NCBI GenBank assembly: GCA_964389375.1
Contig: CAYMDP010000005.1
Span: forward strand, 765 to 64,764
DNA: 64,000 nucleotides
Direction: 5' to 3'
Origin: an uncultured Pseudobdellovibrionaceae bacterium
GTDB lineage: Bacteria; Bdellovibrionota; Bdellovibrionia; Bdellovibrionales; UBA1609
This document shows positions 22,834-54,499 of this stretch, piece by piece (within the stretch, counting starts at the first letter, position 1; each line of letters opens with the position of its first letter). The notes below the pieces were generated by a model. That model worked only from the letters and a program-made list of their open reading frames with translations. It was not told the DNA's origin and made no database searches. The position numbers were made by a program, and so were the translations under genes.

Positions 22834-23061
22834 AGATCTTTCCCCCCGGATTGCCAGCTTCTAGGCCGACTCTGGGGATGGGTCAAGGGCAATTTAAAAG
22901 CGAATAGCTATACAAGCAGCTGTCAAAGCATCCGACGTTTCATCTTGAGAGAATCTCACATTGAGACACTCTAGAGGTCTTAAATTCCGTTTGGGGATTT
23001 GGCCCTCGCGGTATGTCCGTTGCATTGTTTAAGTCATAGGAACTTAATTTGAGGGGGCATA

Positions 23062-24061: not shown

Positions 24062-26252
24062 GCGACATAGAAAAGGCTCAAAGGGCTCAAAAGGCTTCAA
24101 GAAATCGAAAGATAACTTTCACAGCAAAAAACCACAAAAAATTCTTCAGGGGATCGTCAAGCGCCACCCGGATGGCTTCGGATTCTTTATTGCAGACGAT
24201 GCAGATCAGGTCGACGTCTATATCCCGCGAAATTTTATGAGCGGGGTTATGGCGAATGATCGTGTAGAGATCTCGATGGAAAGAGAAAGCGGTGGGGATC
24301 GATTCCGCGGAGAGATTCTAGAGATTCTTCAGCGCGCGACAAATCAGGCGGCGGGCCAATACACCGCCTTGCCCGATGGTAAAGGAATTCTTAAAGACAA
24401 AAGCTTCGCCTGGGGAAGTGACCTGATCGTAGAGAACCCAGAAAATATTCCGGTAAAAGATAAAGACTGGGTTGCGGTTCGGTTGACCGATTATCCGGAT
24501 TCAGCGCGGGGTTTTCGAGGAGTCCTTGTTAAGGTCATCGGAGACATATTAGATCCCTTAAATGACTCTCCTAGGGTTCTTCATCTTCATCGAATTCCAG
24601 ATGAATTTAGCAAAAAAACAATTCAAGAGGCCGCCCGTTTCGGTGAAGAGGTTGATCCTCGTGACATCGAAGGACGAGTCGATTTGCGCGAGATGCCCTT
24701 GATCACTATTGATGGGCAAACGGCAAAAGATTTTGACGATGCTATTTTAGTGCAGAATCAACCAACTGGATTTCGCTTGATCGTAGCGATTGCGGACGTC
24801 AGTCATTACGTCAAGTTGAACACGGCCATTGATGAAGATGCTTACGAGCGGGGAACGAGCACTTATTTTCCAAACTTCGTCTCTCCCATGCTTCCAAAAA
24901 ACTTAAGTGATCATTTGTGTTCACTAAAGCCCAATGTGGATCGTCTATGTCTAGTGGCGGACATGACCTTTGATTTTCAGGGAGAAAAAACGAGTTCTAA
25001 GTTTTACGAAGCCGTGATGCGCAGTCACGCCCGAGTCACTTATGGGCAAGCCCAAGAAGTGATTGATGGCAGTGTGCCCGAAAGTCTTCGGCACGTGGCG
25101 GACTGTATTTTGCGGGCCTCAGACTTAGCCAAGATATTGATGGCCAAAAGATTTCGCGAAGGATCTTTAAATTTAGAGATTCCGCAGACAGAAATTGAAG
25201 TGGATGAAACGGGACAGCCAGTAGATATCATGCAGGCCGAAAGAATTTTTTCTCATCGTTTGATTGAAGAGATGATGTTGGCCGCCAACGTGGCCGTTGC
25301 CGAATTTTTAAATCAAAATGAGCGCGCGGTTTTATTTCGGATTCACGAAGAGCCAAATCCTGAAGCCATTATGAATTTGGTCAACTACCTTCACACTTTA
25401 GGCTTTCAAAAAACGATTTCTGGAGGAGACCTTCAGAAAAAAATTACCAAAGCGCTTCAGGAATTTTCGGGCCATCCTCATGAGCATATTTTGAATGTGC
25501 TGACCTTAAGATCGATGGCTCAGGCGAAATATTCTCCTCATAATGTGGGGCATTTTGGTTTGGGTTTTGCGAATTATGCTCACTTCACAAGTCCTATTCG
25601 AAGATACCCGGATTTAATTGTTCACCGAGTTTTAAAGTCAGTGATTTGCCCCGGCAAGGGTTACGGGGCTTACAGCATGGACGAGCTTGAGTCTGCTGGA
25701 ACTGTCTTAAGTGCTGCTGAGCAAAGGTCGGTCAAAGCAGAGCGTCATATCCAGGCCATTAAAAAAGCCCGCTTTATGAGTAAACATCTGGGACAGGTTT
25801 TTGAGGGCTTCATCAGCTCGGTTACAAAATTTGGACTTTTTGTATTGCTTAGACAATTCGACGTCGATGGCCTTATTCGTCTTGAGGACCTCGGTGGAGA
25901 TCGCTTTGAATTTGATCCCGAAAAACTTATCCTGGTTGGCCGAAAATCTGGTATGAAATACGTCATCGGAGACCCTCTTATGATTCAAGTGGCTGCAGCC
26001 CATATTGATGAAGGACGGGTGGATTTCGTATTGGCTCCGGTTGAGGGTGCAAAGCCAAAATCAGTTCGGGATAGATTTTTAGAAGAATCTTCTTCTGGGC
26101 CAACGGAAAAACTAGGTTTTAGATCGAAGAAAAGGGAGAACGGTAAGGGTGGCAAACGGGCGCGTCAGCAAACTGAAAAACGCGGGAAGGCTGAAGACAA
26201 TTCTGGGCATCTTCGCTCGTCACGGTTTTCAAAGCCTACTCGAAAGAGCTAA
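24060..26252 (+). CDS. rnr: Ribonuclease R
   Basis: OB/cold-shock-like N-terminus, RNB region (ITIDGQTAKDFDDAI, HFGLGFANYAHFTSPIRRYPD), an S1 domain, and a Lys/Arg-rich tail. Confidence 0.9.
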   Translation: MRHRKGSKGSKGFKKSKDNFHSKKPQKILQGIVKRHPDGFGFFIADDADQVDVYIPRNFMSGVMANDRVEISMERESGGDRFRGEILEILQRATNQAAGQYTALPDGKGILKDKSFAWGSDLIVENPENIPVKDKDWVAVRLTDYPDSARGFRGVLVKVIGDILDPLNDSPRVLHLHRIPDEFSKKTIQEAARFGEEVDPRDIEGRVDLREMPLITIDGQTAKDFDDAILVQNQPTGFRLIVAIADVSHYVKLNTAIDEDAYERGTSTYFPNFVSPMLPKNLSDHLCSLKPNVDRLCLVADMTFDFQGEKTSSKFYEAVMRSHARVTYGQAQEVIDGSVPESLRHVADCILRASDLAKILMAKRFREGSLNLEIPQTEIEVDETGQPVDIMQAERIFSHRLIEEMMLAANVAVAEFLNQNERAVLFRIHEEPNPEAIMNLVNYLHTLGFQKTISGGDLQKKITKALQEFSGHPHEHILNVLTLRSMAQAKYSPHNVGHFGLGFANYAHFTSPIRRYPDLIVHRVLKSVICPGKGYGAYSMDELESAGTVLSAAEQRSVKAERHIQAIKKARFMSKHLGQVFEGFISSVTKFGLFVLLRQFDVDGLIRLEDLGGDRFEFDPEKLILVGRKSGMKYVIGDPLMIQVAAAHIDEGRVDFVLAPVEGAKPKSVRDRFLEESSSGPTEKLGFRSKKRENGKGGKRARQQTEKRGKAEDNSGHLRSSRFSKPTRKS

Positions 26253-27789
26253 TCTAGGGCGCTTTGTTTTAGAGCGCTTCCTATCTTCAGAAATAGAAAA
26301 CAAATCCGTTCCAGAGCGTTTGCGATTGGCCTTCGAACAGCTCGGCCCAACTTTTGTCAAACTAGGTCAGCTTCTTGCTACTCGTCCGGATTTAATCCCC
26401 ACAGATTTTGTAGAAGAGTTTAGAAAACTTCAACATCAGGTGGCTCCGATTTCGTTTCAAGAAATCGAAAAAGTTTTGACCGGCCATTTTGGTCAAGACC
26501 TTGAAGTTGTTTTTGAGTCCTTTGACCAACGCCCCTTGGCCGCCGCCAGTATTGCACAAGTGCATCGAGCCGTGTTGAGAACCGGCGAGCCTGTTGTTGT
26601 CAAAGTTCAGCGCCCTGGGATAGGCCCGATTATTCAAGAAGACACAGGCGTTCTTTATACCTTGGCGGATTTAATTGAAAAATATGTTCCCGAAGCAAGA
26701 CCCTATAATCCCGTAGGAATCGTCGACGAGTTTACAAAAAATTTGGCCCTCGAGACCAATTTTATCGTCGAAGCCAATAATATTCGCCGCTTTGCCGAAA
26801 ATTTTTCCTCTCAACCAGAAATCAAGATCCCTCATGTGTATCGTGAATTCACGGGACGAAAAGTTTTGGTTATGGAAGAGCTTCAGGGGATTCCCTTAAG
26901 CCAAAGAAACGCTCTCGATCAAGAAGGCATTAATCCAGAACTTGTTTTAAAGCGCGGATTGAAGGCCTATTTAAAAATGGTTTTCTCTGACGGTCTTTTT
27001 CACGGCGATCTTCACGCCGGCAATATGTTTGTCTTACCTGATAATCGAATCGGTTTAATAGATTTCGGAATGGTCGGAAGGCTCAATCGAAAAACCCAAA
27101 GTGCGATCGCGAATATGCTTTTGGCATTAGCGGAAGAAGACTACGATCGCCTCGCATACAGTTATATAGATCTTGCGCCCTTTACCGAGCAGTCCGACGT
27201 GGATGTCTTTGCAAGACAACTTCGAGATTTAATTGCTCCGTATTTTGGTCTAACAATGAAGCACATGAATGTCGGTCGCCTCTTGTTGGACTCAACGGGA
27301 GTTGCCGCACGCCAAGGGCTGGTCTTGCCAGCGGATCTAGTTTTATTCTTCAAGTCCATTGTCACAATTGAAGGCATGGGCCGCATTATCGTGGAAGATT
27401 TTGATTTTCTTCAACACTCCCTCCAATTCGCAGACGAATTGGTAAAGTCGCGTTACGAGCCGCAAAAAATCGCAAAAGATTTGAGTTTCTTAGCCCGAGA
27501 CATGAATGTCCTATTAAGCGGACTACCAAGGCAAATCAGGCAAAGCCTACGAAAATTCAACAGCCCCGAATACGCCTCTAAAATCGAGGTCCGTGGCTCC
27601 GAAGATTTTTTGAAAACACTTCGCTCTGGTTTTGCACTAATGTTTTTAGGCCTCATCTTAGGCAGCTTAATTTTGGGATCTTCACTTCTTTTGTCCCAAG
27701 CTTCAGACCCCCAAAGCTTCTGGCTAGCCATCGGTGGGCTGGGATTGTCGATAGGCCTAGGGATATTTTCCTATCTCCGTGGCCACTAA
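26149..27789 (+). CDS. ubiB: ABC1/UbiB-family atypical kinase
   Basis: FEQLGPTFVKLGQLLATRPDLIP, AAASIAQVHRA, HGDLHAGN, and two C-terminal TM helices. The GTG start at 26149 implies a 104-nt overlap with rnr. Confidence 0.8.
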   Translation: MANGRVSKLKNAGRLKTILGIFARHGFQSLLERANLGRFVLERFLSSEIENKSVPERLRLAFEQLGPTFVKLGQLLATRPDLIPTDFVEEFRKLQHQVAPISFQEIEKVLTGHFGQDLEVVFESFDQRPLAAASIAQVHRAVLRTGEPVVVKVQRPGIGPIIQEDTGVLYTLADLIEKYVPEARPYNPVGIVDEFTKNLALETNFIVEANNIRRFAENFSSQPEIKIPHVYREFTGRKVLVMEELQGIPLSQRNALDQEGINPELVLKRGLKAYLKMVFSDGLFHGDLHAGNMFVLPDNRIGLIDFGMVGRLNRKTQSAIANMLLALAEEDYDRLAYSYIDLAPFTEQSDVDVFARQLRDLIAPYFGLTMKHMNVGRLLLDSTGVAARQGLVLPADLVLFFKSIVTIEGMGRIIVEDFDFLQHSLQFADELVKSRYEPQKIAKDLSFLARDMNVLLSGLPRQIRQSLRKFNSPEYASKIEVRGSEDFLKTLRSGFALMFLGLILGSLILGSSLLLSQASDPQSFWLAIGGLGLSIGLGIFSYLRGH

Positions 27790-34899: not shown

Positions 34900-34926
34900 T
34901 CTTCGGCGTCTCATTCTGAGTCTTAA
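34900..34926 (-). promoter_or_regulatory. Candidate sigma28 (FliA) promoter for fliC (34812)
   Basis: On the minus strand: TAAG, 14 nt, GCCGAAGA. The consensus is TAAA, 15 nt, GCCGATAA. Confidence 0.4.
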
Positions 34927-35011
34927 TGGCAATGTCTCAAAATTAGACTAAAGCCCTTGGTTTTTTTAAAAGAAGTCCCGTTTCAGAGTTTTTGGGACTA
35001 GCATCTTAAGA

Positions 35012-44064: not shown

Positions 44065-45135
44065 TTAACGAGATTTTAAAAATTTTAGAGGGGACTTCAG
44101 TTTTTTTGATTCTATGACAGAGGTCGGTACGCGTCTTAATTTTGCCATCATCTCTTGGCATTGTCCTCGAGCATAACCAGAATGAGTCAGAAAAAAAGCA
44201 AATGCAGTCATAAGGATTTTTTTAAAGTTCGGCTCGGACCGGTTTAAACGGGTACTTTCTGCGAGAACTCCAAAGAAGTACAGCCAAAAAGGCAAAGCCA
44301 AGACAAGACTATAAAATGAAAAAGTAAAATTAAACATCAAAAGGACATAGGCGGGTCCAAGATAAAAAGCCATTCCATCAGAACTGGAGGATTGAAACTG
44401 TGTTCGGATCGAGTTTTCTCCAAAACGCTCCATGCGTAAAAACCACTCTTTCCAGTTTTCTGCACAATTGTTTAAGACCATGGGGCTTGGGCATAGACGA
44501 AGCTCGTAGCCATAGGCGCTAAGTCTACGTCCAATGTCGACATCTTCTCCGACATTATTTTGAGTGCTGCGAAAGTTTCCAACTCTTAAGACCGCTTCTT
44601 TGCTGAGCAAGATGTTTGTGGTGGCGAGATGAAAAACAGATTGTGAATGCTGAGGCCAAAATGCTTGAGGCGAGTGACCGTGTCCGAGGGGTGAAGACAA
44701 ACTTAAGTTTAGAGCCGAGTGAAACAAAGTCTTTTCAGGGAGGCGGTTTGGACCTCCGACGGCGGCGGTGTCACGGTTACTGAACTGATTTTCATTCAAC
44801 TGCTGGACAAGAGATTCGATCCAATTTGGTGGAAGGATGCAATCGCCATCAGTAAAGGCGATCCAAGGGGTGCGAGAGGCACTGACTATTCCTGCGCGGC
44901 CGAGACCCAAATCATTGACCGAGGATTCGAAGATCTCGATGGGCCAAGGGGATTTACCTTTAAGGCCTTCGATGATTTGTAAGGTTTGATCCTCAGATCC
45001 ATTGTCGACAATAATAATTTCGCGGACAAGTTGTGTTTGGCTTTGATCAAACAAAGACTCCAGCAAGGGGCCAATATTCTTGGCTTCATTTCTTAGGACA
45101 AGTCCGATGGTGATCTGCTGTGGCTCTTGGATCAT
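44065..45135 (-). CDS. Family 2 glycosyltransferase with C-terminal TM segments
   Basis: IIIVDNGSEDQT and AFTDGDC (DxD) motifs, followed by hydrophobic helices. Confidence 0.8.
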   Translation of the reverse strand: MIQEPQQITIGLVLRNEAKNIGPLLESLFDQSQTQLVREIIIVDNGSEDQTLQIIEGLKGKSPWPIEIFESSVNDLGLGRAGIVSASRTPWIAFTDGDCILPPNWIESLVQQLNENQFSNRDTAAVGGPNRLPEKTLFHSALNLSLSSPLGHGHSPQAFWPQHSQSVFHLATTNILLSKEAVLRVGNFRSTQNNVGEDVDIGRRLSAYGYELRLCPSPMVLNNCAENWKEWFLRMERFGENSIRTQFQSSSSDGMAFYLGPAYVLLMFNFTFSFYSLVLALPFWLYFFGVLAESTRLNRSEPNFKKILMTAFAFFLTHSGYARGQCQEMMAKLRRVPTSVIESKKLKSPLKFLKSR

Positions 45136-45209
45136 AAAAATGTGAGACCTTTATCCGTTCAAGTTTTTCGAATGACCGACATCTTAATCGAAAAGATCTT
45201 CAGTGGGTA

Positions 45210-45923
45210 TTAATTATTGAAGAAACGATATCTGAAAATTGTGAATAAAAATGAAAGCCCATCTTTTAAGACATTCAGCTTGGATTGCCCTTTGCGTTCT
45301 TCGTACCGAATCTGAATTTCTTGAATAGGGTAGGCCTGCCTTAAATAAAGCACGGTCATAGCCAGGGTGAAATTCAGTTGACCCGGAAGCTGATCGAGGT
45401 GCTTAAGAAGACTTTGTTTTTCTAAAACTCGAAATCCAGAACAGCAATCTGTGATGCGCCGACCGCTAAAACACCAAACAAGCATCTGATAGCTGAGATT
45501 TCCGATCCTGCGGATCATTGGCATTTTACTATTTGGATTAAGTCTAATCCCGATGCTCATTTTTAAGTTGGGATCCTTTTGAAACAAATGAACCAATGGA
45601 ATCAAATCTTCGGGTTGGCAGGTCCCATCAAGGTCATAAAAACTGAGCAGATCCCCGTTGGCCCTTCGAAATCCGGTTTTAAGGGCCTCTCCGTAACCCA
45701 TGTTCCGTGGGTGGCGAAGCACTTCAATTTGTCCAAGGAAGGGCTGTAGGCGATCAACAGACTGGTCCGTTGATCCGTCATCAACCACTAGAATTTCAAA
45801 CTTCGAAAGTCCACAGGCCCTCATGATCGAGACCTTGTGGTGTAAGAGCTGACTTAAGACCTCGGGAAGAGCTTCTTCCTCGTTATAGCAGGGCAAAATA
45901 ACTGAGAGGGACTGAATCGCCAT
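45210..45923 (-). CDS. Family 2 glycosyltransferase (polyprenol-phosphate sugar transferase-like)
   Basis: LSVILPCYNEEEAL, ILVVDDGSTDQS, FYDLDGT. Confidence 0.85.
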   Translation of the reverse strand: MAIQSLSVILPCYNEEEALPEVLSQLLHHKVSIMRACGLSKFEILVVDDGSTDQSVDRLQPFLGQIEVLRHPRNMGYGEALKTGFRRANGDLLSFYDLDGTCQPEDLIPLVHLFQKDPNLKMSIGIRLNPNSKMPMIRRIGNLSYQMLVWCFSGRRITDCCSGFRVLEKQSLLKHLDQLPGQLNFTLAMTVLYLRQAYPIQEIQIRYEERKGQSKLNVLKDGLSFLFTIFRYRFFNN

Positions 45924-45995: not shown

Positions 45996-46679
45996 CTAGA
46001 AGCTCATTTGAAGGCTAAGCATCTCGCGACTTTCGTCAGGAACAGAGACGTGATTTAAAACAAGCTGGCTGGTCTCAGATAACTTTTGGGTAACTCGAAA
46101 CTCGAATTGTTGACCGGCAACGGCATAGATCATTTCTGCATTCATCAAGCCTTCGTATTGGATTCGGGCCTGGGTGGAACCGGCATCAACATTAAACTTC
46201 ACTTTGTGCTGCGTGCGCATCGGGCTTAATAACTCTGATCCTGAGGCGCCCGGTGCATTTGCAGAGACATCCGATGGGCTTGATCCACCAAAGCTCATTT
46301 CAGTCCTTAGTGGCGCCTCGATTCTTCGAACTAAGTTTGTGATATAAAGATTTTGAGCTTGAGGACTTTTCATCCAGTTATTCAAGGAGTGTCCAATAAT
46401 TCTGCCCGCAAGGTCTTCTCCGTTAGCCGTTGGAGAAAGATTTAAAGGGATATAGTCTTCACCGCGAAACTTAGGTTGAGCATTTGCGATCTCAACAAGC
46501 TGTTGAAAGTAGGCTAAGTCTAATTCTTTAGAGTCAGAAGTTTGTGTGGCTTGGATTCTTTCTGGAATCATGGCGGCCGTTGGAAGAGAGATCAAAAACG
46601 ACATAGCAATCACCAAGCTCTTAAAGCAGAAGCTTTGGATGTTTTTGATTGCGTTTAATGTTGTCTCAATTTGATTCAT
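45996..46679 (-). CDS. Secreted hypothetical protein
   Basis: ATG at 46679. It has a hydrophobic signal-anchor (SLVIAMSFLISLPTAAM). No recognisable domain. Confidence 0.5.
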   Translation of the reverse strand: MNQIETTLNAIKNIQSFCFKSLVIAMSFLISLPTAAMIPERIQATQTSDSKELDLAYFQQLVEIANAQPKFRGEDYIPLNLSPTANGEDLAGRIIGHSLNNWMKSPQAQNLYITNLVRRIEAPLRTEMSFGGSSPSDVSANAPGASGSELLSPMRTQHKVKFNVDAGSTQARIQYEGLMNAEMIYAVAGQQFEFRVTQKLSETSQLVLNHVSVPDESREMLSLQMSF

Positions 46680-46706
46680 TTCCCCAGTCCCCTTACTGAT
46701 TATAGA

Positions 46707-46722
46707 AGCAAAGTTGAGGCCA
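46707..46722 (-). promoter_or_regulatory. Candidate sigma54 (-24/-12) promoter
   Basis: On the minus strand: TGGCCT-CAACT-TTGCT, with GG-N10-GC spacing. It lies about 28 nt upstream of the ATG at 46679. A TATAAT hexamer (46699-46704) follows directly, so sigma70 use cannot be excluded. Confidence 0.4.
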
Positions 46723-47014
46723 AGCAGAGTCCAGAACTGGGCCTTTATAAGGCATCTTAATAACTTAAACTGTCTACAGAGCGCCACCTGCTGAAGACTT
46801 TGACAGAATCAATTCTTCTACATCGCTTTTCAAATCAGAATAAACAAGTGCCCACTAGACTCTGGTCCCAGTGAATTTCCATAAGTTACACTTACCTTAT
46901 TGCGAAGAAAACAAGGGCTCAAAATGAATTTGAAATGCATTTGCAGAGTTAAGTTTAGGTGCATCGGATCAGTTTGAGACTGAGTTATAGTCGTGGGCAT
47001 TTTTACTAATTGTG

Positions 47015-47048
47015 GACCCGGCAAACGAGTTGATAGAGGTGCCGGGTC
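47015..47048 (-). terminator. Hairpin downstream of the lipoprotein gene
   Basis: gacccggca-(16 nt)-tgccgggtc, a 9-bp stem with no U-tract. Confidence 0.3.
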
Positions 47049-47064
47049 AAGTCCGAAAAGTATT

Positions 47065-47625
47065 TTAGATTTGATTTACAAGTTCCTGAAGTCGTTCGTC
47101 GCTAAGTTGCACGGTGTGAGGGTTTTTTCCACAGAAACCGGCAAACTTGGCTTCTTTGACTGAGAACTTTTGACTTACGATTTCTTCACAGGCGCTCTTA
47201 CTCATGCAAACTGTGTCAGGCGTGTTGCCATTTTTAAAAAGCTCTATGTTGACCACACCGAGGTTTTTAGATTTCCCAGGTCCCTCAAGAATACATTTAT
47301 AGACCAAACCGAGTTGATCTTCTGACTGATCTTCATCTCTTGAGACGACTGGTGGTCGGTTAGAATCTTTCTTCTCTTTGTCGCACTCCTTTTCTTCTTC
47401 CGGCAATGTATCGGGATCATCTATAGAGTGGTCTGTGTTATCTGTTAGGTCAGGACCACTTCCGTCGATGAGATCGTCCACTGGATCGACAAAAGAATCC
47501 TCGCCCTCGGCCTTTTCTACAAGGGCGAAGTCACCATTTGGAGTGAAAGAGACTTCTCCGCAGTTTTGAAATAATAGAGTCGAAGTAGAAACGAATCCGA
47601 TGGCTAATAATAAACGCACATTCAT
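47065..47625 (-). CDS. Lipoprotein, hypothetical (acidic linker and a Cys-containing C-terminal domain)
   Basis: MNVRLLLAIGFVSTSTLLFQNCG lipobox. The ATG at 47625 has an AGGGGG Shine-Dalgarno. The ORF-track start at 47646 would lie at the predicted transcription start. Confidence 0.6.
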   Translation of the reverse strand: MNVRLLLAIGFVSTSTLLFQNCGEVSFTPNGDFALVEKAEGEDSFVDPVDDLIDGSGPDLTDNTDHSIDDPDTLPEEEKECDKEKKDSNRPPVVSRDEDQSEDQLGLVYKCILEGPGKSKNLGVVNIELFKNGNTPDTVCMSKSACEEIVSQKFSVKEAKFAGFCGKNPHTVQLSDERLQELVNQI

Positions 47626-47658
47626 AAGTGACCCCCTAAAAAGCATACAAAGCTATTT

Positions 47659-47674
47659 TGCAAGCTGGGGGCCA
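47659..47674 (-). promoter_or_regulatory. Candidate sigma54 (-24/-12) promoter
   Basis: On the minus strand: TGGCCC-CCAGC-TTGCA, with GG-N10-GC spacing. The predicted +1 is near 47648, giving a leader of about 23 nt with a Shine-Dalgarno before the ATG at 47625. Confidence 0.5.
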
Positions 47675-47816
47675 GCGGGGAGCACTTAAAATCGATGCTG
47701 GGCCTGAATTGGCTGTCTAACTAAAAATTTTGTATAAATGTTGGTGTCTCAAAACTCGAGACAGTGACTCAAAGTGAGACGTCTTCGGGCTGCATTCAGC
47801 TTTGAAGAAGTTGATC

Positions 47817-49037
47817 TTATTGACCCTGACTTATAGACCTCTGTCTCATTTGTAGATCAAGATCTTTCGACTCCATAAGACTGTTTAAGATCCGATTTTT
47901 TTTTGAAGTGGGAAGAGGGCCATGCTGAAGTTCGACTTGTTTTATCAGCAAGTTCGTAAACTGGCGAAGCAGTCGAAAGTAGTAAATGGCATTTTCTTCC
48001 TTTTTTTCCGATTCCAGTTTCACTTCGTCTTTGCGACTCCTACTTCCTTCCTCAATTTGATTTCGGAAACTCTCAGTGAAGGTATCGACAAATGGCTTAA
48101 AGCTTTCTGCCATGGCTTGGGTTCCAATGATCTCTTTCATTTGCCAGAGGACATTAGAAAAAAGAACAGAAATTTCATGAGCGCCTCGGCCGTCAAAATC
48201 CTGATAGGTCAGATCTGGACGAAGAGCGATATTTCTGAGATTTCCAATTTTTGGAGAGTTAAAGAACAAAGCCGAACCAAAATCTGCTAAGGCTTCATCG
48301 ATCGCCTCGTTAATTCGGTGAAGCTTTGTTCGGGGAAAAGTTCGGCCGGTAAGAATATGAAAGCGTTCGTGCATAAGAATGCTTCGATCTATATTCGTAA
48401 GATCGAGGGGTGCAAGGGGAAAGACGATATAGTTTTTGTTTGGATCTTCATCATCCCAAATGGCCGAGGGGCTGATTTTTTCTGAGGAATGGGTTTTTGT
48501 GCTGACCTCTTCGTGAAATGGAAAGATCACATCTAAAACTGTCGTCGGGCTTGAGGGGGTCCCAGTAGAGGCTCGCACTTTGTTTCCAAGAATGACGGTT
48601 GTTAAGGGGGGGACAATAAATCCGAGAGTTCGGTAAAAGTTATCAAATTCATTAATATCGGATTGTAGTATGCCTAGGGCTTCATGTTCTTCGGCAGGTC
48701 CCCATGCGTAGAATTGGAGCTGATCGCTTTGAAGATGAATCTGGTATTTTGGATTAAGACGAATGGTTGAGCGGACGACCCCGTTTTTTGAGTCAATCTC
48801 TTGATTCAGCCATACTCCTGGCCCGAGGGCTCTAGGGCGGGAGACTTCGATCCTGTTATCAAAACATTCCCGAATTCCCCCTAAGGTCAGCTGACAGGCA
48901 TTTAAGATAGATTGACAGGCGCCTGGTTGGACAAGGTCAATGTGGACAATTTTGCTTCCGCTGCTTAGAGAAGGGAAAAGGCTCAAAACAAGTACAAGGC
49001 CCAAGCCCATGATCTTAAAGTGACTAAATTTGTCCAT
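47817..49037 (-). CDS. Secreted protein with an HExxH motif (putative zinc metalloprotease)
   Basis: The ATG at 49037 has a TAGGAG Shine-Dalgarno. The signal peptide is MDKFSHFKIMGLGLVLVLSLFPSLSSG. ILMHERFHILTG is encoded at 48357-48371. Confidence 0.5.
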   Translation of the reverse strand: MDKFSHFKIMGLGLVLVLSLFPSLSSGSKIVHIDLVQPGACQSILNACQLTLGGIRECFDNRIEVSRPRALGPGVWLNQEIDSKNGVVRSTIRLNPKYQIHLQSDQLQFYAWGPAEEHEALGILQSDINEFDNFYRTLGFIVPPLTTVILGNKVRASTGTPSSPTTVLDVIFPFHEEVSTKTHSSEKISPSAIWDDEDPNKNYIVFPLAPLDLTNIDRSILMHERFHILTGRTFPRTKLHRINEAIDEALADFGSALFFNSPKIGNLRNIALRPDLTYQDFDGRGAHEISVLFSNVLWQMKEIIGTQAMAESFKPFVDTFTESFRNQIEEGSRSRKDEVKLESEKKEENAIYYFRLLRQFTNLLIKQVELQHGPLPTSKKNRILNSLMESKDLDLQMRQRSISQGQ

Positions 49038-49061
49038 CCTCGGACTCCTAAGCTGAATATT

Positions 49062-49078
49062 TGCGAGATCGCTGCCAA
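49062..49078 (-). promoter_or_regulatory. Candidate sigma54 (-24/-12) promoter
   Basis: On the minus strand: TTGGCAG-CGATC-TCGCA, with GG-N10-GC spacing. It lies about 25 nt upstream of the ATG at 49037. Confidence 0.45.
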
Positions 49079-49176
49079 CGTAGATCATTCTACCCACGTC
49101 AATGCAAGGTCTATGCGAAAGAGAAGCTTGCCGATCGGCACCCTATCTTCTTTTTTTGGCTTATGGCGCCTGTAGA

Positions 49177-50226
49177 TCACTGATTTTTACGGATTTGTTG
49201 GATCAGGCTGCGAACTTGCTTTCGCTTTTCTTCCTCAGATATATGATCCAGCAGAACCTGTTTGATAGTGGCCGTCATGCTGTCAGTTTTCTTTGAGTTC
49301 ATTCCCAGATAAATGGGGTGGTAGGGGATGTAGGGTCCACCGCTAAGTCTAAAGATGACCTTAAGGTATTCCTTAAGTTCATCTTGGTCTAATTTCCATA
49401 GGGATATTTTTTTTGCAAAGGCCTTGATGAATGGAGTCGATTCTTCGATAGGGCGCATTCGAATCCAATATAGATCTACAAGGATTTTTGTTCTAAGGTC
49501 GGAGGACTCTCGGGCCATAAATTCCAAGAATTCGTGAAGGATCTGGAGATCGCCAATGACCTTTATAAAAGATTTTTGTTTCTTTGGGCTGAGTTTCCGC
49601 ATGGACTTTACAAAGAGACTGGCTTCTATTCTCAGTCCACTAAGGCGTCCTAATCCGTAGTCAAAAATGACTTGAGTTTGACTGAGGTCGAAGCCTTGGG
49701 CCAGCAAATGTTCAGTTACTAAGTACATATGATAAGGGGTCGGCTGATAGTGCCCTGAGGCATCAATCAATTCTGTGATGTGTCCCTGATCAACATTCAT
49801 GGACCAAGCGGCGTAAACAGGTTGGTTGTTGTTAAAAGAAGAGTGGCGAAAGTCTCCAATTTGTCGACTGGACTCTTCGGCCACGGCATAAAGCTTTCCA
49901 ATCGAACCTGGGGTCGAGCTCGGAGCCCAAACTGAAATCATGGTTTCGTCGGTTTGACTGTGAAGGGGCTGATTCGAAGTCAGATAAGTGGCCAATCCGG
50001 ATTTGTCCGGGCCCCACTCGTAGCCAGAGATTTGATGTGGTCCCAGATGGATGATTTTTCCACGATCCCTAACATCCGAATAGAGGATTTCATTTTCAGC
50101 AGCCTTAAGAATGACTTCGCAAGCCCGAGCCTTCAAAGAGGTCTTTGTCTCAGCCCACAGAGGCTGAGAACAGACGGTCATCGTGAAGATAAGGGGAACA
50201 AGTTTTTTAAATCTTAGCCAAAGCAT
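49177..50226 (-). CDS. Secreted hypothetical protein
   Basis: Signal peptide MLWLRFKKLVPLIFTMTVCSQPLWA. No recognisable domain. Confidence 0.55.
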   Translation of the reverse strand: MLWLRFKKLVPLIFTMTVCSQPLWAETKTSLKARACEVILKAAENEILYSDVRDRGKIIHLGPHQISGYEWGPDKSGLATYLTSNQPLHSQTDETMISVWAPSSTPGSIGKLYAVAEESSRQIGDFRHSSFNNNQPVYAAWSMNVDQGHITELIDASGHYQPTPYHMYLVTEHLLAQGFDLSQTQVIFDYGLGRLSGLRIEASLFVKSMRKLSPKKQKSFIKVIGDLQILHEFLEFMARESSDLRTKILVDLYWIRMRPIEESTPFIKAFAKKISLWKLDQDELKEYLKVIFRLSGGPYIPYHPIYLGMNSKKTDSMTATIKQVLLDHISEEEKRKQVRSLIQQIRKNQ

Positions 50227-50350
50227 CGCGTCCTTAAACCTTTGCCCTTTTACAATCCCGACTAAAAAATAGACAAAGGAGTGCTCTCAATTGCGGGAGA
50301 AGATGGTTTCAAGGAAGGGGTCTGCTTAAACTATGCCAGACCCAGGGGCT

Positions 50351-51745
50351 TTAAAGATCGGATTCGGCGGGGCGAAGGCCTTTCTTTTTGATTTTTTCAA
50401 CCAGAGTCGTGCGGTTTAAGCCTAAAAGAAGAGCGGCTTGGTTTCGGTTCCAGCCGGTTTTTTCGAGGGCTCTTAGGATCAAAGCGTTTTCATAGTTATC
50501 AACGGCAGAGTTAAAATCTAATCCGCTGTCAGGAAGCTCGATTTGGTTTCCGGGAAGGGGAGCAGCTTGTGATTTGTAGCGAGGTGGAAGATCCGCAACT
50601 TCGACAATCCCTGAGCCCTTTAAAATTGCAAGGCGCTCGACAAGGTTTTCAAGCTCTCGAATGTTTCCGGGCCAAGAATATTCACACAGCATATTTAGGG
50701 CTTCGGGACTAACGCCTTTAAGTTCGCGCGAACGCGAGCGGTTAAAGCCTTCCATGAAATGATGAAACAAAAGCGGGATATCAGACTTGCGCTCGCGCAA
50801 AGCCGGAATATGAATCGGAATCACATTTAATCGGTAGTAAAGATCTTCTCGAAACCGACCATCTTGCACGGCCTCTTCAAGATTGACATTGCTTGCAGCT
50901 ATGATGCGAACATTCGATCTTTGAGACTTGGCACTGCCAACGGGCTCGAAGCATTTTTCTTGAAGGACTCTTAGTATTTTGACTTGAAGACTTGCGGCCA
51001 TGTCGCCAATTTCGTCTAAAAATAAAGTTCCTGACTCAGCAAGTTCAAAGCGTCCAACCCGATTGCTGATGGCGCCAGTGAATGAACCTTTCACGTGTCC
51101 GAAAAGCTCACTTTCTAAAAGCTCACCAGGAATGGCGCCACAGTTAATTGGAATAAAGGGGCGGGCCGAGCGGTCCGAGTTATAATGAATCGCTTTTGCC
51201 ACAAGTTCTTTTCCAGTTCCGCTTTCGCCAGAAACTAAAACAGTAGAATCAGAGGCCGCAACTTTTTCGATCAGCTCTAAAACTCCGTGAACGGCATCAC
51301 TTTGTCCGATGATATTGTCGAACTGATATTTTTTATGAAGAGCCGATCGCAGTTGTTGGTTTTCGTCTTCAAGTTTTCTATGAGAAAGAGCGCGTTCAAC
51401 AAGGGACAAAATTTCGTCTAAATTGAAGGGCTTCGTTGCAAAATGAAAAGCCCCTTTTCGAGTGGCTTCGATTGCCGATTCGATACTTCCAAATCCCGTT
51501 AATATAATGACTTGGGTTTGTTTGTTCCAAGCCTTCAGTTGAGTCATTAACTCAAGACCATCTCCGTCGGGAAGGCGAAGGTCGACGAGGGCTAGATCAA
51601 TTCCTTTTTCAGTTTGTGAAACCATCTCGGCTTCGGCCTTGGAGGCGGCTGTGACGACCTGGTATCCTCTTCTATCTAGTGCTCTGAACAGTGCGGTTCG
51701 TAGACTGGCTTCGTCGTCAACAATAAGAATTCTTTGAGCCTGCAT
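50351..51745 (-). CDS. Sigma54-dependent response regulator (NtrC family)
   Basis: MQAQRILIVDDE receiver domain, AAA+ module with GESGTGKE and GSFTGA (GAFTGA variant), and a Fis-type HTH (NRNQAALLLGLNRTTL). Confidence 0.9.
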   Translation of the reverse strand: MQAQRILIVDDEASLRTALFRALDRRGYQVVTAASKAEAEMVSQTEKGIDLALVDLRLPDGDGLELMTQLKAWNKQTQVIILTGFGSIESAIEATRKGAFHFATKPFNLDEILSLVERALSHRKLEDENQQLRSALHKKYQFDNIIGQSDAVHGVLELIEKVAASDSTVLVSGESGTGKELVAKAIHYNSDRSARPFIPINCGAIPGELLESELFGHVKGSFTGAISNRVGRFELAESGTLFLDEIGDMAASLQVKILRVLQEKCFEPVGSAKSQRSNVRIIAASNVNLEEAVQDGRFREDLYYRLNVIPIHIPALRERKSDIPLLFHHFMEGFNRSRSRELKGVSPEALNMLCEYSWPGNIRELENLVERLAILKGSGIVEVADLPPRYKSQAAPLPGNQIELPDSGLDFNSAVDNYENALILRALEKTGWNRNQAALLLGLNRTTLVEKIKKKGLRPAESDL

Positions 51746-51889: not shown

Positions 51890-53785
51890 TTACAAATCTA
51901 GACGTTGGAGAGAAATTCTTGCCGTGCTGCCCTCAGACTTCTGGGAAAAAAGCTCCAACCTCCCACCATGGTCTGTAATAATTTTTAGGGCCACCGTAAG
52001 ACCTAGGCCTGGATTGGCTCCCGAGCTTTTTGTTGTGAACAAAGGATTGAAGGCTTGACGCAAAACGGACTCGGGCATTCCGCATCCGTTGTCCTTGATA
52101 TTTAAAAACAATTTTGATTTTTCGACTTCAATTTGAATTTGAATTCGACCAACAAAGCGCGGATTTTCAGACATTTTTTGAGAAATTGCTTCGATGGAAT
52201 TATGAATAATATTATTCAGCGCCTGGACTAAAAGGTTAAATTGTCCCTTAATTTCTAAGCTTTCCGCTGGTAAATCAACGTCGATCTGAATGCCCTTAGC
52301 CCGCGAAATCAGTTCGGTAATTTTAAGAGACTGAAGAATCACTTCTTTAAGGTCGAGGTCCTGAAACTCAAGGGCCGAGCTGCGTCTAGCAAAACCCAAA
52401 AGACTTTGGACAATATCCCGACACTTTAAAACTGCGGCTTCCATTTGATCCACATCGGTCCTGCGCGGGTCCGCTTTGGCGAGGTCCATTTTAATCAACT
52501 GAAGAAAAGACAGCATGCCTGCCAAGGGGTTGTTTAACTCATGGGCAATGCTACTGCCGATGGTTCCAATTTCAGCAACCTTTGAGGACTCTAGGACTTG
52601 CCGTTCGAGTTTAAGCTGCTCGGTGATGTCTTCAAATAAAATTAGACTTAAAGGCCTGCGTCCGTCCTCACTGCTCAGGGGCTCTATTTGAATTTCGAAG
52701 CTGCTCATTTTTTCTAAATTCTTTGAAGTTAACTGAATGGATTTCGGCAAAGCGCGAAGTTCTAGATCCGGAACAAAACCCAACAGAGGCGTGAAGCAGT
52801 TTTGACCGATTAAACTTTTAAAGTCTTTTCCAGCGGCCTTGGCAAAGGCTTGGTTGGCTTTAAGAACGTGAAACTCTTCGTCCACCAAACAAAGAGGTCG
52901 TGCAATGGCATCAAAGGTCGACTCCCACTGGCGCTTTAGACTTTCTGATTGTTCAAGCTTGCTCATGCGATCTACGGCTAAGGCGGCGGCATCTGCGATT
53001 TGTTCTAAAAAATTTTTCTCGGCTTTGGTGAAACGTTTGGGTTTGGTTTTCGCAAAATAAATATCTCCCGGAACTTGCTGGCCCAATCGAATCGGAACTT
53101 GATAGGTTGCCGTGTTTTCTGCAAGCTGAGACTGCACCGAGAGATTGCTTAGAGAACGAAAAACGATCTTCACCCAAGACAGATCTAAGGTCTGAGTCAG
53201 AATTCGGTTTAATAAAGATTCCATTTCGCCAACGGATCGCGCCTGATGAACAGCAAGAAGGCAGCTATGAAGAGCCGTGATCTGAGCTTTTGAGCTGCGC
53301 AGTTTGTCTTCAGAAGTTTTAAGGGACTTCAGGCGTTTATTCACCCGCGACTCAAGATCATTGTTTAAAATTTCTAAATTTTCGTTTTGTTCTTGGACGA
53401 CTTTAAGCAGTTCACGATGTTGTCTGTGATAATCGAATTTTTCGAGGGCTTTTTTTAAGACTTCCTCGAGGCCCTCATTTTTAAGGTTCTGTAAAATTCG
53501 AAAAACTTTTTTTTGATTGACCAGCTCAAGGGCTCTCTCAAGGGGGATTTCTTCTGCACACAGGACACGAACTGTATTTGGCGAGACGCGATCAAGTTGA
53601 TCGATAAAATTCTTTAAGCCTGGATCTTTGGGATCTTTTCCGAACACGACAACTGGGATTTTATTTTTTGCGAGAAGTTCTAGGGCCGCTTGGTGGTTGG
53701 GAACAAATTGCACGCCCCAGCACTCAGCCTCGGGAAGTGGTGAGGAAATAATTAAAGCCTGCTCAAAATTTTCTCGCGAGGGCAC
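51890..53785 (-). CDS. Cytoplasmic sensor histidine kinase (receiver-like N-terminus, coiled coil, PAS/GAF-like region, HisKA, HATPase)
   Basis: SIAHELNNPL H-box, and the HATPase motifs NIIHNSIEA, DNGCGM and GLGLTV. No TM helix. GTG start. Confidence 0.85.
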   Translation of the reverse strand: MPSRENFEQALIISSPLPEAECWGVQFVPNHQAALELLAKNKIPVVVFGKDPKDPGLKNFIDQLDRVSPNTVRVLCAEEIPLERALELVNQKKVFRILQNLKNEGLEEVLKKALEKFDYHRQHRELLKVVQEQNENLEILNNDLESRVNKRLKSLKTSEDKLRSSKAQITALHSCLLAVHQARSVGEMESLLNRILTQTLDLSWVKIVFRSLSNLSVQSQLAENTATYQVPIRLGQQVPGDIYFAKTKPKRFTKAEKNFLEQIADAAALAVDRMSKLEQSESLKRQWESTFDAIARPLCLVDEEFHVLKANQAFAKAAGKDFKSLIGQNCFTPLLGFVPDLELRALPKSIQLTSKNLEKMSSFEIQIEPLSSEDGRRPLSLILFEDITEQLKLERQVLESSKVAEIGTIGSSIAHELNNPLAGMLSFLQLIKMDLAKADPRRTDVDQMEAAVLKCRDIVQSLLGFARRSSALEFQDLDLKEVILQSLKITELISRAKGIQIDVDLPAESLEIKGQFNLLVQALNNIIHNSIEAISQKMSENPRFVGRIQIQIEVEKSKLFLNIKDNGCGMPESVLRQAFNPLFTTKSSGANPGLGLTVALKIITDHGGRLELFSQKSEGSTARISLQRLDL

Positions 53786-54499
53786 TTAGGACCGCCTCAA
53801 TATTTTTTTAAAGCCCTCTGCAAATCTAGGCCAGATCTCGGCACTTGGGACGCGCTCGGCTTCTTCGACGCAAATTATGGGCAGCTTGTTGTCCACCCAA
53901 CCATAATGGCTAAGGCTTCCAGGAGTTGGGTAGCCAATCGTATTTTCTATGGGGTAACCCGAGGCCTGGCTTAAGGCTTCGGCATCGCGAAGCGCCGGGG
54001 GCCCAGTTAAAACAATCATCGGCTTCCAAGAGTGGCAGTGAATCACAAGGCGTGGGACCGTTTGTTGAATCAAGTCAACCACAGCCAAAGTTTCTGGTTC
54101 GCTACCGGCTTTGGGGCCTGGAAAATAACGGGACTCCTTGTAGTCCGGGGACCAATTTGAAGAGGGGTAGTTGCGATTCAGGTCGACGCCATTTCCATTG
54201 GTTCTTTGATTCAGCTTAAAGCCATCGATGTTAAGACAGGGAATCACAGCCCAAGGCTGAATTTGATCTTCGGATTCATTGCTTTGGATCAGCCAATTTA
54301 ATAGCTCAGAGGCCAGAGTGACTCCCTCAGGTTCGTCTCCGTGGACTCCACCGATGACGATCACCGGAGAGAGGCCTTTTTTAAACACAAAGTGTCCGCT
54401 GTGAACCAGTTCAATGTTTTGACCTGTTGCGGATTTACACCAGTTTGGATGCCGATTGACTCGCAAGGCTAACCCTGTCCTTTCTTGACCTTTTTTCAA
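53786..54499 (-). CDS. M14-family metallopeptidase-like protein (MpaA/succinylglutamate-desuccinylase-like)
   Basis: VIGGVHGDEPEG (HxxE zinc motif) and DLNRNYP. Its stop abuts the kinase start. Confidence 0.65.
   Translation of the reverse strand: MKKGQERTGLALRVNRHPNWCKSATGQNIELVHSGHFVFKKGLSPVIVIGGVHGDEPEGVTLASELLNWLIQSNESEDQIQPWAVIPCLNIDGFKLNQRTNGNGVDLNRNYPSSNWSPDYKESRYFPGPKAGSEPETLAVVDLIQQTVPRLVIHCHSWKPMIVLTGPPALRDAEALSQASGYPIENTIGYPTPGSLSHYGWVDNKLPIICVEEAERVPSAEIWPRFAEGFKKILRRS

Follow-up and report, generated by a model that had tools for sequence, protein, structure and literature searches.

The closest described relatives of the regulatory system that we discuss here are the NtrC, AtoC, and ZraR systems of Escherichia coli (NtrBC-glnAp2, AtoSC-atoDAEB, and ZraSR-zraP). 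In these systems, an activator with REC, AAA+, and HTH_8 domains is paired with a histidine kinase, the -24/-12 (sigma-54) promoters adjoin the regulator gene, and a dyad with 7-N3-7 geometry lies about 100-150 bp upstream. We found a similar arrangement in a 64,000-nucleotide (nt) stretch of contig CAYMDP010000005.1 (the window), in which an activator of this type and its kinase are followed by four genes for exported proteins, which we call A, B, C, and D in the order of transcription. The -24/-12 sites again adjoin the regulator gene, and a 7-N3-7 dyad is found at the usual distance upstream of gene C and of the orthologues of D in other families. The locus differs from the E. coli systems in that its operon opens with the gene for an MpaA-like amidase and in that its targets would be exported proteins of unknown function, not metabolic genes. 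Also, unlike NtrC's sites, the dyad is off the NtrC consensus and is far too abundant to be a private enhancer.

Sigma-54 has been described as a controller of the bacterial exterior, including the control of Borrelia lipoproteins by Rrp2-RpoN, and AtoC-like activators are the dominant class in the same survey, whose main text does not mention Bdellovibrio (Francke et al. 2011, PMC3162934). The genome that we analyzed fits this theme, as its sigma-54 sites mostly precede genes for signal-peptide proteins or lipoproteins, and as glycosyltransferase genes follow D; it departs from the theme in that the targets are orphan structural or secreted proteins instead of precursor-biosynthesis enzymes. 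For predators of the Bdellovibrio type, there is hardly any description of regulation by sigma-54, and our literature search found no account of it there, nor of the palindrome described below. What we report is a known pattern, sigma-54 acting on the cell exterior, which is well documented but ordinary, in a clade for which we found no description. This kind of system is textbook material, and the value of the analysis is a regulatory map for an unstudied clade, not a new mechanism. There are three testable products: the conserved pairing of an activator (that of the amidase-kinase-activator operon) with its presumed target, the D family; the rule, seen throughout this genome, that exported proteins are encoded behind sigma-54 sites; and a 17-bp palindrome, abundant across the order, that recurs in a genome matching Bdellovibrio bacteriovorus HD100, a laboratory strain open to genetics.

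The explanation that we favor, and consider fairly probable as a whole, is as follows. The amidase-kinase-activator operon would have a single ancestral neighbor, D, that is transcribed from a conserved -24/-12 promoter, and A, B, and C would have been inserted between the activator gene and D in this lineage. C would have a strong sigma-54 promoter of its own, while B and A would have weak candidates that either work or are bypassed by read-through. The kinase would phosphorylate the activator, whose oligomers would bind TGTCTCA-N3-TGAGACA, a dyad whose 7-N3-7 geometry matches that of NtrC sites. The activator would then hydrolyze ATP to open the closed sigma-54 complexes at D and C.

A sequence-only reading of the locus had proposed three -24/-12 promoters, upstream of C, B, and D. 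All three matches are present, and we noticed a fourth, weaker one upstream of A; in the minus-strand sequence, each of the four has the GG-N10-GC spacing in a context that resembles TGGCAC-N5-TTGCW. From the ends of the C, B, and D sites to the corresponding ATGs (47625, 49037, and 46679) there are 33, 24, and 27 nt, and each ATG is preceded by a Shine-Dalgarno (SD) sequence and opens a signal-peptide-like N-terminus, as that reading had described. The shorter gene starts that it preferred are consistent with the promoter positions. The fourth match lies 13 nt past the stop codon of the activator gene and precedes the start codon of A by about 95 nt.

The genome (2.96 Mb, 45% G+C) has an intact rpoN (219.9 bits to PF04552 in an open frame of 483 amino acids), on which such promoters would depend, and 11 genes for sigma-54 activators (strong matches to PF00158). 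Taken bare, the pattern TGGC-N7-TTGC is no commoner in the window than chance predicts (2 found, 2.45 expected), which would also fit the view that all of the matches are fortuitous. Because this pattern is at the chance level, we scored the whole genome with a 16-column position weight matrix (PWM). The two half-sites, placed at ten wrong spacings, served as decoys. Among matches that face a gene start, there were 140 with the correct spacer versus 51-86 for decoys at scores of 10 or above, 75 versus 11-27 at 12 or above, and 37 versus 1-9 at 14 or above. This 2- to 7-fold excess over the decoys shows that the sigma-54 motif is in use across the genome. Given a position filter (a match 12-60 nt before an SD-preceded start of an open reading frame, or ORF, of at least 100 amino acids), we estimated the fraction of true sites as 0.45 for scores of 10-11, 0.48 for 11-12, 0.73 for 12-13, 0.72 for 13-14, and 0.89 for 14 or above. 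Accordingly binned, the C site has an estimated true fraction of 0.89, the D site 0.73, and the B site 0.45, so that the background estimate speaks for the first two of the proposed promoters and leaves the third at roughly even odds. A PWM derived from this genome was discarded as circular; it gained nothing over the input model.

The proteins encoded behind these matches are overwhelmingly exported, as had been suggested for the targets at this locus. Signal-peptide-like N-termini were found behind 40/56 (71%) of the correct-spacer matches that score 12 or above, versus 25/109 (23%) of the decoys (P = 3.5e-9, Fisher's exact test). This bias raises the odds for all four local sites. The genome belongs to the Bdellovibrionales (Pseudobdellovibrionaceae-like) and appears to use sigma-54 mainly for exported proteins. 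Within the window, the sites of C and D are the only matches of 12 or above that face a gene start; five others lie within coding sequence.

Of the three proposed promoters, the D site is the best supported, and the site of the HExxH gene, B, is the weakest. The D family is present in 143 of the 201 genomes that we examined from the order, usually in a single copy. Wherever a locus contains D and the activator's orthologue together, D is found beyond the 3' end of the latter, at a distance of 9 nt to 9.5 kb; there are 29 distinct loci of this kind, of which 21 have the two genes on the same strand and 8 have them convergent. Upstream of D orthologues (46 distinct regions), the mean best sigma-54 score was 13.0 (decoy spacings, 5.2; antisense strand, 5.7), and 34/46 regions scored at least 12 in the sense direction versus 1/46 in antisense. 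Thirteen further D loci, from metagenome-assembled genomes in GenBank, all scored 12 or above (13/13). A model-free search gave the same motif: TGGC-N7-TTGC was the commonest gapped dyad, in 25/46 regions, versus 6 or fewer in shuffled sequence.

The sequence-only reading had doubted the D site in particular, as the site is followed immediately by a perfect TATAAT, which might be the real promoter. More broadly, one could propose that all of the sigma-54 matches are fortuitous and that these genes are transcribed from sigma-70-type promoters. But this TATAAT has no -35 element at a usable spacing, and a scan for sigma-70 promoters upstream of these genes was empty. Among D orthologues, GG and GC are kept at the exact spacing across families; a TATA-like stretch after TTGCT is frequent but is missing in many of them. 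Because of this difference in conservation, the site that was doubted is instead the most secure of the set. The comparison with spacer decoys also opposes the proposal, which we consider very improbable despite the TATAAT and the chance-level count of the bare pattern. The promoter of D is very probably real.

Because the gene order is conserved, we infer that the adjacent activator controls D, and on these comparative grounds we lean somewhat towards this link. The gene order does not fit as easily with another proposal: that C and D do depend on sigma-54, but belong to a dispersed regulon of exported proteins under another of the ten remaining activators, or under one of these jointly with a global regulator that binds the palindrome, while the two-component system is a neighbor for other reasons. 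D is found beside the activator's orthologue in 29/29 distinct loci outside the Bdellovibrionaceae, despite varied orientations and inserted genes, which is a classic signature of an activator and its target. To weigh this proposal we need to consider the palindrome, which is the only cis-element that C and D have in common.

This palindrome, TGTCTCA-N3-TGAGACA, occurs 75 times in the genome (at least 12 of 14 positions), versus 3-12 times for other spacers. Most of the copies (59/75) fall between genes, as a rule 100-180 nt ahead of an ORF. All ten Bdellovibrionales genomes that we tested show an excess of the palindrome. In one of these, which matches that of B. bacteriovorus HD100 (HD100-like below), there are 40 copies with at most one mismatch, versus none for the reversed control. 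The window contains five copies, at 22953-22969, 34908-34924, 34934-34950, 46662-46678, and 47765-47781. The last of these is the C palindrome, which is at -99 from the first base of the promoter and forms part of two adjacent dyads; it falls in the same distance class as the copies at D orthologues in other families. Among 41 D promoters, 30 have a palindrome (at least 11 of 14 positions). Counted from the first base of the promoter, its position is -96 to -132 in 17/41, with -96, -106, and -123 as repeated values, and +52 to +64 in 9/41 (the window, where it is at +52, and eight relatives).

Palindromes are also associated with sigma-54 sites elsewhere. In this genome, 14/75 are near correct-spacer sites versus 1-7 near decoys, and in the HD100-like genome, 9/39 versus 0-4. 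About 15 promoters in this genome combine the palindrome with a sigma-54 site, and nearly all of these precede genes for signal-peptide proteins or lipoproteins, several with an FQNC or YQNC N-terminus like that of C. Because the element that they share has about 75 copies in this genome and is found across the whole order, C and D look like part of a dispersed regulon of exported proteins. So the local regulon under this two-component system that the sequence-only reading proposed is backed in its link to D, and appears too narrow in being local, both for the palindrome at C and D and for the inserted genes.

Is the adjacent activator the protein that reads the palindrome? The 7-N3-7 geometry suits dimers of NtrC-type HTH_8 domains, and it is possible that the adjacent two-component system also drives C via the shared element. 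But the abundance and spread of the palindrome, about 15 of whose copies sit at sigma-54 promoters on many different contigs, favor another regulator, and the two-component operon has no palindrome of its own nearby. About 3 Mb separate D from the activator's orthologue (3,345,257-3,346,639) in the HD100-like genome. Furthermore, since most palindromes have no sigma-54 site, their reader may be a general regulator instead of the adjacent activator. (We looked for a second motif near the palindromes that lack sigma-54 sites and found none.) On balance, we treat the assignment of the palindrome to the adjacent activator as tentative, and we would sooner doubt it than rely on it. Control of C and D by another activator, alone or jointly with a global regulator that binds the palindrome, seems unlikely to us, given the conserved pairing of D with the activator gene.

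Several other observations weigh against the favored explanation. The PWM approximates the consensus of Barrios et al. 1999 and was not taken from their table. Three match-bearing genes in a row are not rare by themselves (P = 0.45 by permutation); the clustering becomes significant when an activator gene is required within 6 kb (P = 0.02) or when a fourth gene is counted (P = 0.018). The genome has ten other activators that could act at these promoters. Roughly three quarters of the palindromes have no recognizable sigma-54 promoter nearby, no palindrome was found in the upstream regions of A and B, and the copy at D, whose center is near +26, is at an odd place for an enhancer. Finally, linkage between D and the activator's orthologue is absent in the Bdellovibrionaceae proper, where no canonical -12 GC is seen upstream of D either.

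The unusual position at D has a partial parallel. In Caulobacter, the ftr elements are dyads for the NtrC-type activator FlbD; they lie upstream or downstream of flagellar sigma-54 promoters, and they can act negatively. These two placements would resemble the palindrome at about -125 or about +26. The comparison is loose: there are no flagellar genes at our locus, +26 is nearer to the promoter than ftr elements are known to lie, and protein binding to the palindrome is putative.

A bolder proposal is that the palindrome is the enhancer of an order-wide sigma-54 regulon of envelope proteins and lipoproteins, including that of HD100, which is commanded by the activator of the amidase operon, and that the site at D moved from about -125 to about +26 in the Pseudobdellovibrionaceae. 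We consider this improbable. If it were true, then the sensing of murein-peptide turnover (for instance, during the digestion of the prey's wall) would be tied to the remodeling of the predator's surface, and the shift of the palindrome at D would alter its mode of action.

The promoter of gene C has the highest score of the four and is, like that of D, very probably real. C itself appears to be a small, cysteine-containing, lipoprotein-like orphan. Its N-terminus contains L-[FY]-Q-N-C, a variant that resembles a lipobox and that is also found in the window from about 23009 onwards (plus strand) and on contigs C32 and C50, in each case behind a promoter with a palindrome and a sigma-54 site. 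This motif may be a clade-specific lipoprotein signal.

For genes B and A, we need to consider whether there is a sigma-54 promoter at all. It could be that functional sigma-54 promoters are limited to D and perhaps C, that the matches at B and A arose by chance, and that these two genes are expressed by read-through or from sigma-70-type promoters that we did not recognize. Their scores fall in bins where about half of the matches are at the decoy level, and both sites are off consensus: the B site has a C in place of the strongly conserved T at -14, and its transcript would have a very short leader (about 15 nt), while the A site has AA at -15/-14 and AAGCA at -12. Our scan gave no terminator on the minus strand that would separate A from B or follow the activator gene. 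Nor are sigma-54 sites in excess at the genes that separate the activator from D in other genomes (3 matches in 34.5 kb, which is the decoy level). For the B site, we found no support from orthologues and no shared upstream element, and no sigma-54 site precedes the distant homologues of B.

On the other side, A and B encode exported proteins, which is the class that sigma-54 sites favor in this genome, and there is no sigma-70-like match before either gene. Also, in the closest relative (locus L156, whose activator is 77% identical), a strong site (score 14.0) lies 4 nt past the stop codon of the activator gene and before an ORF of 576 amino acids; D comes after this ORF and has its own promoter. 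Similarly, an A-like gene in genome G040 has a site that scores 13.2 just upstream. Overall, we rate the chance origin of both matches as somewhat less likely than not, and below the explanation that we favor. Taken singly, the B promoter is perhaps slightly more credible than not, and the A promoter is somewhat doubtful. A search for 10-mers common to the four upstream regions gave nothing convincing, and TGCCGATCGGCA, upstream of gene B, occurs only once in the genome.

The coordinates of these sites, palindromes, and genes are given in Table 1.

Table 1. Features of the locus. Positions are those of the window, and scores are from the 16-column PWM.
Feature	Position	Strand	Details
Predicted promoter of gene C	47659..47674	-	TGGCCCCCAGCTTGCA; predicted start near 47648; score 14.4 (rank 44 genome-wide)
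Candidate promoter of gene B	49063..49078	-	TGGCAGCGATCTCGCA, preceded by T; predicted start near 49052; score 10.8
Predicted promoter of gene D	46707..46722	-	TGGCCTCAACTTTGCT; predicted start near 46696; score 12.6
Fourth, weak match upstream of gene A	50322..50337	-	TGGCATAGTTTAAGCA; predicted start near 50311; score 10.1
Two adjacent dyads upstream of the C promoter	47745..47781	.	CGTCTCACTTTGAGTCA (12/14), centered at about -125 from the predicted start; plus GTCTC-N7-GAGAC
Palindrome at D	46662..46678	.	TGAATCAAATTGAGACA (12/14), centered at about +26 from the predicted start; abuts the ATG at 46679
MpaA-like M14 amidase gene	53786..54499	-	First gene of the conserved amidase-kinase-activator operon
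Histidine kinase gene	51890..53785	-	PAS, HisKA, and HATPase (Pfam)
NtrC/AtoC-type sigma-54 enhancer-binding response regulator gene	50351..51745	-	REC, AAA+, and HTH_8; GSFTGA loop
Gene A	49177..50226	-	Exported orphan of 349 amino acids; RHSSF...SGHY motif
Gene B	47817..49037	-	Candidate exported zinc metallopeptidase of 406 amino acids; HExxH and ExxxD
Gene C	47065..47625	-	Exported or lipoprotein-like orphan of 186 amino acids; LFQNC motif
Gene D	45996..46679	-	Order-wide family of envelope proteins, 227 amino acids; N-terminal signal or anchor helix
Two GT2 glycosyltransferase genes	44065..45923	-	Pfam; begin 72 nt past D

The amidase, kinase, and activator genes sit directly upstream of A-D on the same strand. 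The sequence-only reading had already identified the kinase and the sigma-54 response regulator, and their domains and the GSFTGA loop bear it out. The activator matches PF00072, PF00158, PF25601, and PF02954, each above its Pfam cut-off, and its orthologues are 60-77% identical across the order, versus 33-49% for paralogues. It scores below every NCBIfam equivalog cut-off, including those for AtoC (478.4 versus 714 bits), NtrC (452.1 versus 558.6), and ZraR (385.7 versus 760), and is a generic member of the NtrC family, not an equivalog of any of the three. Full-length orthologues of the kinase, at 33-45% identity, are found in relatives. The amidase matches NCBIfam's MpaA (E = 1.1e-27), under the curated cut-off, and its gene lies upstream of the kinase's orthologue in most relatives. 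An MpaA-like murein-peptide amidase gene heads the kinase-activator operon across the order, and this conserved place hints that the system senses the turnover of cell-wall peptides.

None of the genes A-D matched a family in Pfam or NCBIfam. From their distribution, A, B, and C are lineage-specific inserts between the activator gene and D: we found no orthologues of them, and none of the three was present beside 80 further orthologues of the activator. In 40 relatives, A and B had few, weak, and partial matches, with only two partial homologues for A. The RHSSF...SGHY motif of A is common to two distant homologues. Searches of the PDB with the sequences of A and B gave nothing meaningful, and for B, a word-indexed search of 5.8 billion proteins returned only the query.

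Gene B probably encodes an exported zinc metallopeptidase, a candidate of the gluzincin type. It has 52 distant homologues, and H223, E224, H227, E248, and D252 are invariant across a set of 25 homologues. The ExxxD follows the HExxH by about 21 residues, the same order of motifs as in lugdulysin and hyicolysin (M30) and other gluzincins. The best fold match to the predicted model of B was lugdulysin (7bb8; E = 1.3e-4, with a low TM-score of 0.33), followed by gluzincins of families M1 and M61, also with low TM-scores; about one quarter of the model is of low confidence. Unlike the M30 gluzincins, B has no family-level sequence match in Pfam or the PDB.

The predicted structure of D (AlphaFold, with 40 homologues; mean pLDDT 76.5) begins with an N-terminal helix, is helical in its middle part, and closes with a beta-meander of seven strands, in which the pLDDT exceeds 90. 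At their C-termini, members of the family show alternating hydrophobic residues and a final F or W, a pattern known from outer-membrane proteins. The fold search gave no significant match in the PDB, the PDB sequence search gave nothing meaningful, and the word-indexed search again returned only the query. We found no terminator-like site between 45900 and the stop codon of D, and the two GT2 genes are possibly co-transcribed with it. Homologues of GT2 genes also lie near D in three other genomes (G003, G161, and G188).

Another element, TGACAGCTGTCA, was found upstream of some D orthologues, with ACAGCTGT in 12/46 of the D upstream regions. It was rejected, as it is not enriched in the genome (6 matches, the same as for permuted controls). 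In some families (G025 and G037 among others; for instance, loci L031 and L033), the space from the 17-bp palindrome to the D promoter contains a second palindrome, GACAGCTGTC, seen as ACAGCTGT in the 12/46 regions; it is not enriched in this genome.

We had considered that the Bdellovibrionaceae might lack an orthologue of the activator, but this was rejected: one is present at 65-68% identity, unlinked from D. In three Bdellovibrionaceae loci (L078, L080, and L082), TGG-N9-TTTGAA lies right before the SD sequence of D, in place of the -12 GC. This may reflect a switch of promoter type or a non-canonical -12 element. The D locus of the HD100-like genome, at 380213-380653, is among loci L078-L082.

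The genome also encodes a second, diverged paralogue of D outside the window (contig C2:12020-12508, plus strand), which has a palindrome at its 5' end and no sigma-54 match upstream. Another cluster of three sigma-54-like promoters, also outside the window, is on the minus strand of contig C22 at about 24663-27677, with scores of 13.9, 12.8, and 11.3. Each of these sites lies 29-38 nt before the gene for a small exported protein (195-238 amino acids), and one of them has a palindrome at -97.

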